From Actinomycetota bacterium (GTDB taxonomy: Bacteria > Actinomycetota > Actinomycetes > S36-B12 > CAIYMF01): a stretch of DNA of 64,000 nt. The notes under the pieces were generated by a model that was given only the letters and a program-made list of their open reading frames with translations, made no database searches and was not told where the DNA came from. Positions 11,198 through 27,863 of this stretch are shown here, piece by piece. Each line of letters begins with the position of its first letter. The first letter of the stretch is position 1. The stretch lies in contig JAPLAU010000029.1 in the NCBI GenBank assembly GCA_026393115.1, positions 16,057-80,056 on the forward strand, given 5' to 3'. Both the position numbers and the translations under genes were made by a program.

Positions 11198-11220
11198 TCC
11201 TTAGCCAGTTACCAACAGCA

Positions 11221-11266
11221 CATCAAAGGCCCCTTGCTGCGCGTGCGCGGCGAGGGGCCTTTGATG
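11221..11266. terminator. bidirectional hairpin terminator candidate
   Basis: CATCAAAGGCCCCT-N18-AGGGGCCTTTGATG, a perfect 14-bp stem between convergent genes (10766..11197 plus strand and 11417..11725 minus strand). Confidence 0.6.
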
Positions 11267-11416
11267 TTCCGTCACCGCGTCTGCAACGTCACCCACGAAA
11301 ATCTGCCACGTTGGTCATCTCAAGCCCGGAATTGGGCATCGAGACAGCAAACCCGGCAGATTTTCCCCTCATCGCGCTGACTGGCCGCCTTCGAACCATC
11401 GCGGTTGCGCGAGAAC

Positions 11417-13183: not shown

Positions 13184-13474
13184 ATGGGTGAGCTTCGAGA
13201 CCGTGTGCGCCAGAAGGCCGACGAAATCAAGGCCTTGGCTCAAACTCACCACGCCAACGACATCATGGTGTTCGGGTCTGTCGCTCGAGGGGACGATCGG
13301 GCCGATAGTGACATCGATTTCCTTGTCGAATTCAATCCTGGAGCCTCAATTCTGGATCAGGTTCACCTCGAACTCGAACTGCGAACCCTGCTGCAATGCG
13401 ACGTCGATGTCGTTCCTCGAGGCGGGCTCAAACACCGGGACCAACATGTTCTTGACGAGGCAGTGGCCTTGTGA
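13184..13474 (+). CDS. mntA: MNT-type nucleotidyltransferase antitoxin
   Basis: Minimal NTase motifs VFGSVARGDDRADSDIDFLVEF. 4-bp overlap with the HepT gene. Confidence 0.85.
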   Translation: MGELRDRVRQKADEIKALAQTHHANDIMVFGSVARGDDRADSDIDFLVEFNPGASILDQVHLELELRTLLQCDVDVVPRGGLKHRDQHVLDEAVAL

Positions 13475-13791
13475 CCCGAGGTGATGACCTTCGCCGTGCC
13501 GACATCGTGGATGCGTGCGCTGCGTTAGATCGTGTCCTTGAGGCGCGACGATCCACATTGGTCGAGGAGGACATCCTTCTTCGAGCCGCCGAACGGCTCT
13601 TGGAGATCATCGGCGAAGCGGCGACGAGTTGCTCCGCGGAATTCAAGGCTCAGCACTCAGGGATCGACTGGTCGGGGCTTGCCGGACTGCGGATCATTTT
13701 GGCTCACCACTACCACCGAACACAGCCGGAACTAATATGGACATTCGCAGAGGTGGACGCTCGTTTTCTGCGTCGAGAACTGGGGGCGTGA
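13471..13791 (+). CDS. hepT: HepT (DUF86/HEPN) toxin
   Basis: RIILAHHY fits the RX4HXY HEPN motif. 106 aa. Confidence 0.85.
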   Translation: MTRGDDLRRADIVDACAALDRVLEARRSTLVEEDILLRAAERLLEIIGEAATSCSAEFKAQHSGIDWSGLAGLRIILAHHYHRTQPELIWTFAEVDARFLRRELGA

Positions 13792-14744: not shown

Positions 14745-14803
14745 CGAGACCCCGTTCCAGCGCTACTTTAGGCACCGAAAAATAGCACTGGAGTGGGGTC
14801 TCG
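14745..14803. repeat. 59-bp palindromic REP-like element, copy A
   Basis: CGAGACCCCGTTCCAGCGCTACTTT-aggcaccg-AAAAATAGCACTGGAGTGGGGTCTCG. Intergenic, downstream of the giant gene. Confidence 0.8.
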
Positions 14804-14939
14804 AGAAGTTTGCGTCAGGAGGACTCCATCACGTTGCGAGGATCGTCGGCCGCCGCAAAGCGAAAGCCGCACACTTCATCCCGGCGGCAATTGGCGTCTA
14901 CGCGGCTTGCTGGTGCCGTTCTCGAGGGTTACGTCACGC

Positions 14940-17900
14940 CTAGCCCAGCTTGATGGCGCCGCTGGTGAGGGTGTTGGGCGTCGTGGCCGGTAGTGCGGGT
15001 TGGCCGCTCTTGGGTGTGTAGGTGAACGTAATGGCGATCGTTCCAGCGCTGGCCGGACTGGTCGTGGTGGGAGTGATCGTCAACGTGACCGGAATCGTGG
15101 AACCCACGCTGGCCCAGCCGCCCTTGCCGCTGTTGAGGGTGCTGTTCCACCACGACAGAGTTCCCGTGCCCGTGACAGTGCCGGCGCTACCGCTCTTGCT
15201 GTAGTTGGTGCTCGTGCCGGTGAACTGCCAGGCACCCGGAGCGGTGTAAAGGATCTGTCCGGTGGTACTGGTGGCCTTGCGCGCGGTGAACGCGAAGTCC
15301 GTCGGAGCGAGTGCGTTGCCATACGAGCCTGCACCGACCGCTGACGTACCGCTCAGCGTTGTTGCAACGGCGATCTTCGTCACCGCAACAGCCGCCTGAC
15401 AGTTACTGCTCGCCGCCAGGGTGCTGGTGACGAAGTACGTACCCTCAAGCCAGCTGGTGGTGGCAGGCGTGGTTCCGGTGAGCTTGTAACTGCCCGCCTT
15501 ACCCGTCAGCGGGTTACGGTCCAGCGAGTACACCACGGTGCCGGTGCACACAGCCGGAGTACGCGTGGTGCTCAGAGCCAGCGTTGCTGGAGTGATCGCC
15601 ACTCGCGCACCCGTGTACGTCACCGTCGTCGCCGCGGTTGCGATGGCAAACGTCTTGGAACCAGTCGACCCATTGTGGTTCGCATCACCCGCATACGTCG
15701 CCGAAGCCGTCGCAGTGCCCGAATTCGTATTGCTGGCGTAGGTCACAGTGGCCGTCGTGTTCAGACCACCCGCACCCGTCACCGCGGCAGTACACGGAGT
15801 CTGCGCTGCACCGGTGTACGTCGTCGACGCCGGGCAGGTCACCGTGGTGGTCGATGACGCTTTGGTGATCGTGACCTTGGCGGTTGCCGTCGTGTTGAAC
15901 GTGTAACCGGCCAACACTCCACCCGAACACGTGATCGTCAGCGGTGATGCCGCGACCGAGGTGGACGTGGTGTAGGTGCTTGTGCACGCAGGCTTCGTTG
16001 AACCGGTGCCGAAGGTCGGGCTCACCACGGTGCCTGACACCGAACCAGTTCGCAGCGTGTACGTGTAGGCCGGAACCGCCGAGGCGTAGGTCAGCGACTT
16101 GGCATCAGGCACCACATACACGGTCGTGGCCATCTTGATGGTGAACGTCTTGGAACCAGTCGACCCAGTGTGGTTGGCGTCGCCGGCGTACGTGGCCGAG
16201 GCAGTGGCAGTTCCCACGTTCGTGTTGTTCGTGTAGTTAACAGTCGCGGTGGTGTTCAGACCGCCGGCGCCCGTCACCGCCGCAGTGCACGGAGTCACCG
16301 CCGAGCCGGTGTAGGACACCGACGCCGGGCAGGTCACCGTCGTAGTCGAGGCAGCCTTGAGAATGGTCAACAGTGCAGTCGACGTCGTGTCGAACACGTA
16401 ACCGGCCAACACCCCACCCGAACACGTGATCGTCAGCGACGACGAGGCAACCGGAGTGGTCGAGGTGTAACTGCTCGTGCAGGTAGGAGCCTGCTGAGCC
16501 GCCTTGGCATCACGTTGCACCGGGAACACCGGGAACACTTGGGGTCCGGTCGGAGAGCCTGAGTGATACGTGAACGAGTACTTTGACCGATCATCATTGG
16601 CAGAGACACTGTCGGCGTACACGACAGTCTTGGGATCGGGCACCACGTAGATCTTCACGCCAATAATCGAGAACGTCTTGCTATCCGACGAGCCAATGTG
16701 GTTGGCATCACCGTCGTACGTATACGAGGCAGACGCCGTGTTAGTACCGATCGCAGTGTTGTTCGCATAAGTAGGTGTCGGAGTCAGCGAGAAACCACCA
16801 GCACCAGTCACACTCACCGAACACGGCGTCAACGCCGAACCGGTGTAGGTCGCGGAAGCCGGGCAAGTGACGACGGTAGTTGAAGCCGCCTTGTTCACGG
16901 TCAACGCACCATCGGTGTAACTGGTCGGATTGAAGTTATCCGACGAACCACCCGAACAATGCGTCACATACGAACCAGCGTTCAACGTTCCCGACACCGC
17001 ACTGGTGTAAACCTGCGGACTCGACACCGCAAACACATCACACGAAGGATCAACACTCCAGTCACCACTGGTGGTCAACGGATCCGTGCTGTAACCAATG
17101 CTCGGAGTCACATCCCCGTAGGTAATCGTCGGAGTCACAGCCGTCACCGTCACATCAGCCTGATCCACGGTCAACGCACCATCGGTGTAACTGGACGGAT
17201 TGAAGTTATCCGACGAACCACCCGAACAATGCGTCACATACGAACCAGCGTTCAACGTTCCCGACACCGCACTGGTGTAAACCTGCGGACTCGACACCGC
17301 AAACACATCACACGAAGGATCAACACTCCAATCACCGGCCACCGTCAACGGATCCGTGCTGTAACCAATCGTCGGAGTCGAATCGCCAAACGTGATCGTC
17401 GACGGAGAATCAGCAGTCACCGTCACATCGGTGACCGCCGAAGCAAGCACGAAGAACGGTGCGCTCACATACTCGACCGTCGTGGCGACGGCCGGGTCTC
17501 CACCGTCGCAGTGACGCTGGTATTCACCTACAAGAAGTAGTCCAGTCAGCGGCGAGCTGAAGGTCGAGTCTGACAAATCGAACACGCTGCAGGTCGGCTT
17601 GGTGGTCCAGTCTCCGCTCGCTGTGGCAGGACTCGTGGTGTAGTCGATGGTCGGCACTGACTGATCGCTGGTGATCGAACTCGGATCACCCGGCGACACG
17701 ATGGTCGTGTCGGCCGACGGGGTCCCCAGCGCAAACGGCGACAACGAACTGACCGTGCCGCAGACAACCCCATACACCTCGTCGTAACTGGTGGTCACGT
17801 CTTGCCAGGTCGGCACGGGAAGATCGGCGTTGTAGTGGAACATGCGGGGCTTAGTCGGGTTACCCGTGTCGTATGGCATACACACGTGGGTCAAGCCACT

Positions 17901-26320: not shown

Positions 26321-26470
26321 TTCTTCGCGGCGGTGGTGCACTCGGTTGAAGAAGCGGTGGTCAACGCACTCGTGGTGAACACCGAGATGGTCGGTCGCGA
26401 TGGGCACCGCAGTCCGGCGCTTCCGCACGATCGCGTTGTTGAAGCGATGCGCCGCGCGTACGCGACATAG
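26321..26470 (+). pseudogene. 3' remnant of a DmpA/P1 (S58) family aminopeptidase gene
   Basis: FFAAVVHSVEEAVVNALVVNTEMVGRDGHRSPALPHDRVVEAMRRAYAT* matches the typical C-terminus of this family. It starts directly after REP copy B and no upstream part is present. Confidence 0.55.
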
Positions 26471-26562
26471 TTCGCTGCGCAGATCGCGAGGGCCACTTGC
26501 CCTCACCACACTTCGACTTCTTTGGTCAAACGAATCCCCGGACGGTCATCCCTTGACAAAAG

Positions 26563-27726
26563 ATGCCGAAGGAACCGGCACGCGGTGGGAGCGAACCAGC
26601 CGCGGCCTTGGCGCTAGACTCACGGTCCATGGAAGCCACCGCGCCCGAGTCCGCCCCGGTCGAGCCCCCCGGCGCGAAGGCCAAGGTTCTGCTGCGCCGC
26701 GCCGGGATCGCCGTCGTCCTTATCGTGATTCTGCTGATACCGGCGATCGTCATGGTGGTGGCTACGGCGGTGTTCACCGGCCACGCCGAGGGCGCGGGCA
26801 CCTACGCATCCATCCCCGCGCTCGCCACGATGGCTGCCGTGGCGGCCGGGGGCCGCGATCTGGGACTGCGCGTGGCGATCGTCCTGATGCTGCTCGGGCC
26901 GCTGTCGATCGTGGCCGGGGCTAATCCCGTGTCGGGCGCGGCCCTCATGGCCCTCATGTGCCTCATGGTGGGCCTGATGTCTCGATGGGGACTGCACCGC
27001 GCGGGGCTCATGGTGCCGGTCATGGTGGCCTGGACCCTGATTTCCCCACCGCCGTGGGGTGCGAAGCCGGTCGTCGACCGCATGGACACCACCTTCCTGC
27101 TGTGGATGGCGCTGATCTTCTTCGTGGGCGGGCTCTTCCCCGTGCTGGTGCTTCCATTCGTGCTGCGCAAGGCCCACCTGCCCTCACCCAAGCCCAATCC
27201 CCGCAACGAGGCGATCGTCTACACGATCATCATCACGGTGCTGGCCGCCGGCGGCACCTATTACATGCTCGACCACCCCAAGTTGTTCGGCGGTGCGTTC
27301 TTTGTGGCCACAGTGCTGGTACTGGCACCCATCGGCGAGGCCGACATTCTCAAGCCCACCATCGTGCGCGTCGTTGCCACCGTGGCCGGCTCGGTGCTGG
27401 TGATGCTGCTCCTGGCCGCGGTGAGTTCGCTGACGGTGCTCTACCTCATCGGCCTGCTCATCGGTGCGGTGGCGATCGTCGCGAAGTTCAGCCGGCGCCC
27501 GGCGCTCTACTACATCCTCATGGTGCCCACCGCCGCCTGCCTCAACGCCCTATCGGTCCAGCAGGTCGGCCAGCTCAGCGATCAGCGCGTGATCGACAAC
27601 CTCGTGGGCGGCGTACTCGTCCTACTCGCGTCTGCCGCCGCCATCGGCTACTCGCGGTGGGAGCAGAAGCGCGGCAACTCCACCACGGACGAGCACGTCG
27701 TGGCCCGAGTACCGGCCGCCGCATAG
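26563..27726 (+). CDS. FUSC/ArAE-like integral membrane protein
   Basis: 387 aa with multiple TM helices. VRVVATVAGSVLVMLLLAAV and DNLVGGVLVLLASAAAIGYS are typical of the family. The start is uncertain. Confidence 0.45.
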   Translation: MPKEPARGGSEPAAALALDSRSMEATAPESAPVEPPGAKAKVLLRRAGIAVVLIVILLIPAIVMVVATAVFTGHAEGAGTYASIPALATMAAVAAGGRDLGLRVAIVLMLLGPLSIVAGANPVSGAALMALMCLMVGLMSRWGLHRAGLMVPVMVAWTLISPPPWGAKPVVDRMDTTFLLWMALIFFVGGLFPVLVLPFVLRKAHLPSPKPNPRNEAIVYTIIITVLAAGGTYYMLDHPKLFGGAFFVATVLVLAPIGEADILKPTIVRVVATVAGSVLVMLLLAAVSSLTVLYLIGLLIGAVAIVAKFSRRPALYYILMVPTAACLNALSVQQVGQLSDQRVIDNLVGGVLVLLASAAAIGYSRWEQKRGNSTTDEHVVARVPAAA

Positions 27727-27804
27727 GTCTCAGCGCAACCGAGACGATGGCGCGAGTGAAGGAGTTCGCCGACTACACCACGCAGTGATACCGCTTCCGC
27801 ACGC

Positions 27805-27863
27805 CGAGACCCCACTCCAGCGCTACTTCAGCCACCGCGAAACAGCACTGGAGTGGGGTCTCG
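27805..27863. repeat. 59-bp palindromic REP-like element, copy C
   Basis: CGAGACCCCACTCCAGCGCTACTTC-agccaccgcg-AAACAGCACTGGAGTGGGGTCTCG, between convergent gene ends. Confidence 0.8.

Follow-up and report, generated by a model that had tools for sequence, protein, structure and literature searches.

Palindromes framing putative nuclease genes and their solo copies in an actinobacterial genome

Repetitive extragenic palindromic (REP) elements are best understood in Proteobacteria, where they are explained by REP-associated tyrosine transposases (RAYTs); Actinobacteria possess many long intergenic hairpins without U-tracts. The subject of this study is a near-perfect palindrome of 59 bp that occurs three times (copies A, B, and C) in a stretch of 64,000 nucleotides (the window; contig C12, positions 16057–80056) of an Actinomycetota bacterium, whose 3.51-Mb draft assembly (62% GC; G000) is the genome under study. 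A first-pass annotation of the window had described the copies as a REP-type element and had suggested links to a RAYT/IS200-IS605 transposase and to the truncation of neighboring genes.

REPs with a CGTC tag have been described in five phyla, Actinobacteria not among them; they combine stems of 8–9 bp and loops of 4–5 nt with a CGTC tag that is unpaired and a tail of CCA, are located mostly downstream of genes, and have no dedicated transposase (Di Nocera et al. 2013; PMC3733652). A survey of PD-(D/E)XK nucleases placed VSR, DUF559, and DUF2726 in a single clade that includes the homing endonuclease I-Bth0305I (PMC3424549). No description of palindromes framing DUF559 genes was found in the literature searched; the nearest item is a table row in which DUF559 proteins are enriched among predicted inversion targets (PMC9881135), and the arrangement of repeat and enzyme reported here is apparently unpublished.

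Palindromes and the genes that they frame

A census with nhmmer and a covariance model of the 59-bp element (R1) recovered exactly seven copies in G000: the three in the window, two on contig C25 (H1 and H2), and one each on contigs C23 and C32. The gene cluster at the C23 site, ino1-PadR-DUF5318, accords with the genome being actinobacterial. The element is found elsewhere only in two other species of the same genus (G001, six copies; G002, three copies) and on lake-metagenome contigs of related strains. The first-pass annotation, which had proposed a dispersed REP-like repeat and a genome-wide search for further copies, is borne out on this point by the four copies outside the window, those in the sister species, and the dozens of related palindromes in sister genera. 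H1 and H2, direct repeats of 63 bp with 87% identity, lie 1050 nt apart and tightly frame a gene encoding a protein of 337 amino acids. Of the seven copies in the palindrome family of this C25 cassette, five are therefore solos, namely A, B, and C and the copies on C23 and C32.

The product of the framed gene has Pfam matches to DUF559 and, weakly, to AbiEi_4. In its AlphaFold (AF2) model (39 homologs; pLDDT 93.4), the first ~200 residues resemble the antitoxin AbiEi (6y8q; Foldseek probability 1.0) and Rv2827c, and the C-terminal ~95 residues match the catalytic domain of I-Bth0305I (3r3p; TM 0.70), Vsr (1vsr), and a DUF559 structure (3hrl). Residues D269, E280, D282, and K286 (VDF...EADG...K) show little or no variation among the 39 homologs. 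The protein is thus predicted to join a DNA-binding winged-helix module of the AbiEi type to a nuclease domain that resembles Vsr and I-Bth0305I (DUF559, PD-(D/E)xK).

The same layout recurs around other genes of this kind. In a first check, each of the four Pfam-detected DUF559 genes of G000 proved to lie between directly repeated copies of a long palindrome with a sequence specific to that gene; a fuller census yielded nine DUF559-like genes, six of them framed by their own repeats (48–117 nt, 87–97% identical, with a spacing of 964–1083 nt), and the same test on random positions gave no framing in 400 trials. The six repeat types occupy 22, 16, 8, 8, 7 (the C25 type), and 6 places in the genome and include small hairpin families that had emerged from a blind genome-wide scan. 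In the sister genera g3 (G004) and g4 (G008), DUF559 genes are framed by the palindrome of their own lineage, which belongs to the class captured by a broader model covering sister-genus palindromes (R2); the neighborhoods of the two loci are unrelated, with an aldo-keto reductase (AKR) gene in one and genes for a GNAT protein and IspG in the other. Framed loci are present also in G001, G002, G010, G021, and G023, and about a dozen further loci in other genomes show repeats of 20–34 nt at the same spacing. Among eight homologs from other actinobacterial orders, three are clearly framed (L183, 62 nt, 95% identity; L185, 60 nt, 90% identity; L182) and two partly so. These comparisons indicate a general layout in which gene-specific palindromes frame such nuclease genes and solo copies are scattered in intergenic spacers.

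Evidence for the mobility of the cassette comes from three sites that are occupied in G002 but not in G000. The inserts of 1246, 1276, and 1210 bp each consist of palindrome, gene, and palindrome, and the matching spacers in G000 (29, 41, and 32 nt) are free of palindromes; it follows that the palindromes were inserted along with the gene and do not represent a duplicated target. As judged from these comparisons, the palindrome-gene-palindrome unit (~1.2 kb) behaves as a discrete insertion. The solo on C23 represents a gain of ~146 bp relative to G001 (146 nt replacing 25 nt), and ~170 bp of this locus are homologous to the C25 cassette at its H2 end; the homology takes in the first ~27 nt or so of the nuclease gene (5′ end) and, on the other side, the G-rich repeats. 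At least one solo therefore derives from cassette DNA. No clean empty site was found for the solo palindromes, the spacers at C23, the AKR site, L053, and G005-L095 being diverged or rearranged.

Two side observations concern the sequences used in these comparisons. G-rich tandem repeats lie to the right of H2 (Table 1) and likewise to the right of the C23 and C32 copies; they consist of GGTGGGT-type units (33–37-nt units at C32), vary in number between strains, and may form G-quadruplexes. The public record of G002 (L024 and L027; CALQEM02 contigs) is titled Bifidobacterium breve, a label that looks wrong, given that synteny and shared repeats mark it as a relative of the same genus.

Setting and conservation of the solo copies

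The positions of the seven copies and of further features discussed in the text are summarized in Table 1.

Table 1. Palindrome copies, their flanking genes, and other features (window positions unless a contig is named)
Feature	Position	Strand	Setting
Solo copy A	14745–14803	+	Co-directional; 136 nt from the stop of the 3328-aa gene (14940, minus) and 63 nt from the start of the ABC_membrane/bestrophin-like gene (14681, minus)
Solo copy B	26251–26309	+	Divergent; between the vapB start (26175, minus) and the dmpA remnant (26320–26470, plus; 12 nt away)
Solo copy C	27805–27863	+	Convergent; 78 nt from the stop of the gene for a FUSC-like membrane protein (27726, plus) and 17 nt from the stop of the alpha/beta-hydrolase gene (27881, minus)
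Solo copy C23	C23		Divergent (PadR/DUF5318), in the ino1-PadR-DUF5318 gene cluster
Solo copy C32	C32		Co-directional
Framing copy H1	C25:112924		37 nt from the stop of the 337-aa gene
Framing copy H2	C25:114037		3 nt from the start of the 337-aa gene; between divergent gene starts
G-rich tandem repeats	C25:114096–114200		Right of H2
Second long palindrome	11215–11272		28-nt arms; between rmuC and the gene for an Sbt-type transporter
Match to a 117-nt framing repeat	~11296		
Palindrome resembling the C5 framing type	C32:77045–77098 (L003 7046–7099)		~120 nt from the C32 copy
MNT/HepT pair	13184–13791		Nucleotidyltransferase and HepT RNase
VapB/VapC (PIN) pair	25505–26175		Left of copy B
Strain-variable 10.2-kb segment	15288–25485		3328-aa gene and its signal-peptide open reading frame

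Copies A, B, and C lie exactly where the first-pass annotation had placed them; all are intergenic and share one orientation (covariance-model scores of 82–86 bits forward and 60–68 bits in reverse), and its statements about the neighbors of each copy are upheld by the gene positions. Its 20-nt search pattern retrieves six arms, i.e., the three elements, against 0.08 expected, and none of 100 shuffled sequences equals this number. The hairpins stand as described, but the stem of 24–26 bp contains two conserved C·A mismatches (pairs 17/43 and 22/38) instead of the single one reported, copy A has two additional G·U pairs, and the loop measures ~9 nt. Comparison with Rfam returned only chance matches, namely miRNA hairpin models with E values of 0.09–0.37. 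Start codons that apparently abut several hairpins on the minus strand proved to be mostly 3′ ends of plus-strand genes.

Comparison of the flanks located the copies at orthologous sites across species. Copy A is identical, flanks included, in the lake-metagenome strains L038, L047, and L051; copy B has orthologs in G001 (L019:2722) and in metagenome strains, and copy C in G001 (L019:1394) and L042. Distances between copies group by site and not by genome, and a concerted evolution of the paralogous copies was rejected on this basis.

The sequence of the palindrome itself is conserved, beyond a mere ability to fold, as the following observations show. The 9 bp at the outer end of the stem (CGAGACCCC/GGGGTCTCG) do not vary across 28–29 distinct copies. 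The variable stem positions are mostly single transitions that create a G·U pair on one strand and a C·A mismatch on the other (49 G·U vs 61 C·A), with neither a strand preference nor an excess of covariation, on which ground an RNA structure formed on one strand was also rejected. Five genomes share a ~100% identical hairpin at the C32 site, which is thus better preserved than the adjoining coding sequence (80–90%), and the DNA past the hairpin cannot be aligned.

Outside the genus, weak R1 matches are confined to the family, and their inspection uncovered palindromes of ~57–67 bp in sister genera. They have an apical module in common (GTC[GA]CTTC, loop, GAAG[CT][GA][AG]C), whereas the basal stems are lineage-specific and entirely different. 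R2 yields 67 matches in G005 and 34, 33, 28, 27, and 11 in five other sister genomes (counted on both strands), whereas genus g5 and several g4 genomes gave no match. A recurring motif beside these palindromes (GGGGTCAG) turned out to be merely the TGA stop codons of the flanking genes.

Other palindromes of the cassette-associated types were encountered near the solo copies. The window contains a second long palindrome and, beside it, an nhmmer match to the 117-nt repeat that frames a DUF559-like gene on contig C7 of G000 (~25.6–26.8 kb), which probably marks a solo of a second cassette-associated repeat type. On C32, a palindrome resembles the type that frames a DUF559 gene on C5; two solo types would share this spacer, although the site is missing from a stricter nhmmer census of the C5 type. 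The two toxin-antitoxin pairs of the window are included in Table 1.

The surroundings of the window copies vary between genomes. G001 possesses an intact S58 peptidase gene (dmpA; 398 aa) between its copies B′ and C′; in G000, a deletion of 1087 bp that ends 12 nt from copy B has left only the last ~45 codons, and an extra FUSC-like gene precedes copy C. In the strain of Ga0194056_10000003 (L048, L038, and L042), a diverged hairpin (H48) and a hydrolase paralog with 25% identity come after dmpA, and the FUSC-like gene, hairpin C, and the hydrolase form a block ~50 kb away; the B–C region has therefore been rearranged between strains. The link to local gene truncations suggested by the first-pass annotation is weak: the dmpA deletion speaks for it, but the absence of the 10.2-kb segment with the giant gene from L047, L051, and L038 (where position 15287 joins 25486) has breakpoints away from any hairpin, as have the differences in the ABC-like gene. 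Hairpins are often found at the edges of homology, which is also expected wherever a hairpin fills most of a short spacer. An apparent chimera of H48 and C in copy C′ of G001, which would have implied hairpin-by-hairpin recombination, was withdrawn because a single variable position supports it.

Proposed mechanism and alternative explanations

The explanation that we consider reasonably probable as a whole is that the window copies are solo members of a nuclease-cassette palindrome family and that the nuclease acts on its own palindrome. The protein would recognize the palindrome through its winged helix-turn-helix (wHTH) module, and the nuclease would then act on it and propagate, homogenize, or maintain the copies, as RAYT does for REPs and for the hairpins formed by paired REPs (REPINs). 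Solos might originate from a palindrome that moves alone, with the enzyme provided in trans, or from the decay of a full cassette; the solo on C23 still bears ~30 nt that resemble the 5′ end of the nuclease gene. Once placed, solos would persist for long periods at the same sites, and any effect of the hairpins on neighboring transcripts (termination, insulation, or stability) would be secondary.

Several observations weigh against this explanation. Three of the nine DUF559-like paralogs of G000 are unframed, and of the DUF559 loci that could be tested in other genomes, a strict criterion recognizes framing at only 6 of 36. G005, the genome with the most palindromes, yielded no framed DUF559 gene; palindromes can therefore persist, and perhaps spread, without a framed gene. 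Because the copies cluster by site and not by genome, the solos of this genus are old and stable, with little sign of current mobility except the gain at C23. Target-site duplications were seen neither at this gain nor at the AKR site; at both, the flanks are too diverged for a definition of the boundaries. Moreover, a cutting or moving of palindromes by the nuclease is itself an inference.

Among the alternatives, a reading of the solos as ordinary factor-independent, I-shaped terminators without U-tracts, or as hairpins that stabilize RNA, which share ancestry by chance and between two of which the nuclease gene merely lies, is unlikely but has the most in its favor. The hairpins are very stable, with RNA folding energies for A, B, and C of −33 to −42 kcal/mol on the plus strand and −38 to −50 kcal/mol on the minus strand (z-scores of −6.6 to −11; none of 200 shuffled sequences matches their stability). 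Nearly all related palindromes of G005 lie just past stop codons (4–20 nt in most of the 23 copies inspected), often between convergent genes; at the sites of C32, H1, and C, the hairpin has stayed with the 3′ end of the upstream gene, whereas the DNA beyond has been replaced; and G000 contains 33 other long hairpins without U-tracts. However, two of the five solos (B and C23) as well as H2 are located between divergent gene starts. Three of the five solos follow a stop codon; their placement in divergent (two), co-directional (two), and convergent (one) settings gives mixed support to the terminator or mRNA-stabilizing role suggested in the first-pass annotation and does not fit a role solely in termination. 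U-tracts and T-runs are lacking in all copies, and no copy was called a canonical terminator. Terminators would also leave unexplained why the 9-bp base of the stem is invariant without compensatory changes, why six paralogs each have their own repeat type when none of 400 control positions is framed, and why the framed unit occurs as a whole as an insertion or deletion.

It is quite improbable that the palindromes are operators of the AbiEi-like DNA-binding protein, with H2 serving in autoregulation, the solos as regulon or decoy sites, and no movement caused by the nuclease. AbiEi is known to bind inverted repeats in its own promoter, and the N-terminal part of the protein has the fold of this antitoxin; only 3 nt separate H2 from the annotated start downstream of it, and three of the seven copies are in 5′ regions. 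Regulation alone does not account for the second palindrome at the 3′ end of each framed gene, the location of most G005 solos after stop codons, the conservation of the nuclease motif, or the insertion of the cassette as a unit with both palindromes.

A classical REP or REPIN family whose RAYT is missing from the draft assemblies is very hard to reconcile with the data. Such a family would match the dispersed extragenic palindrome and its patchy, lineage-specific copy numbers. However, the RAYT domain (PF01797), to which the search for an insertion-sequence partner of a miniature inverted-repeat element was directed, is absent from G000 and its 24 relatives in the family (25 genomes, 19 of them at least 90% complete) and was detected in six control genomes, so that the link to RAYT and IS200/IS605 suggested in the first-pass annotation is not supported. 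Moreover, the 59-bp palindrome is paired fully to its ends (CGAGACCCC/GGGGTCTCG) and has no unpaired GTAG or CGTC tag, and its stems of 24–25 bp contrast with 6–13 bp in published families.

Integron-like attC sites, or other cassette recombination sites in an island rich in toxin-antitoxin genes, scarcely merit consideration: three copies in the same orientation lie in such a region and the content between B and C differs (dmpA in G001; the dmpA remnant and the FUSC-like gene in G000), but the ends of the element lack R″/R′ core sites (RYYYAAC...GTTRRRY), no IntI scores above the cut-off (the best TIGR02249 match reaches 79 bits vs 265), four of the seven copies have core-genome contexts (rplM, ino1/PadR, and a PLP enzyme), the genes between copies are in mixed orientations, and the supposed chimeric hairpin C′ rests on one variable position.

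Implications and comparison with known systems

A bolder proposition, to which we give less than even credence, is that the cassettes of AbiEi-like wHTH and Vsr-like (DUF559) domains constitute an unrecognized class of mobile or domesticated DNA in Actinobacteria. Each nuclease would recognize and cut its own palindrome of ~50–120 bp, thereby spreading cassettes and gene-less solos by break repair or by excision and reinsertion; the solos would become long-lived, and the system, having evolved independently of REP and RAYT, may explain a large part of the REP-like hairpins in high-GC Gram-positive genomes. If nucleases of this wHTH-Vsr-like family are the partners of the palindromes, an abundant class of actinobacterial repeats would gain an origin, and a function would be assigned to a very common orphan family, the members of which are variously labeled "DUF559", "AbiEi antitoxin domain", or "very-short-patch-repair endonuclease". 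The cassettes would also offer naturally diversified pairs of protein and DNA recognition site, with six types in G000 alone. For genome annotation, such hairpins should not be presumed to be terminators or RAYT-type REPs.

Among the known systems, integron attC sites share with the 59-bp element an imperfect palindrome of similar length, a single orientation, and variable gene content nearby, but the element lacks the conserved R boxes, IntI is missing from the genome, and the copies studied here are spread over core-genome sites. CGTC-tagged REPs are likewise palindromic and extragenic, and some of the sister-genus versions begin with CGTC...GACG; by contrast, the 59-bp element has neither the short stem and loop nor the unpaired CGTC tag or the CCA tail.

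The two halves of the protein have separate precedents. The AbiEi antitoxin of type IV toxin-antitoxin systems (6y8q) has the fold of the N-terminal ~200 residues, but there is no AbiEii partner gene and the C-terminal domain is predicted to be a nuclease. I-Bth0305I and Vsr have the fold of the C-terminal domain, and I-Bth0305I provides a precedent for a selfish nuclease with such a domain. However, I-Bth0305I is harbored by a group I intron and interrupts its own target, whereas the gene described here is free-standing and accompanied by two complete palindromes, and the empty sites are free of palindromes.

The closest resemblance is to the REP/REPIN-RAYT systems of Proteobacteria (REPtrons), which the arrangement parallels with an unrelated enzyme. 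In both, a single-copy gene is framed by a palindromic repeat that is also scattered in intergenic regions, each paralog has its own repeat type, the spread is patchy and lineage-specific, and, in the high-copy relative, copies tend to lie just past stop codons. The differences concern the enzyme, which is a Y1/HUH transposase in REPtrons and a predicted fusion of AbiEi-wHTH and Vsr-like PD-(D/E)xK nuclease here, and the repeats, which are palindromes of 48–117 nt with stems of about 25 bp, no GTAG tag, and framing copies in direct orientation. The copy number is low (6–22 places per type, and seven for the 59-bp element), whereas REPs reach tens to hundreds of copies.

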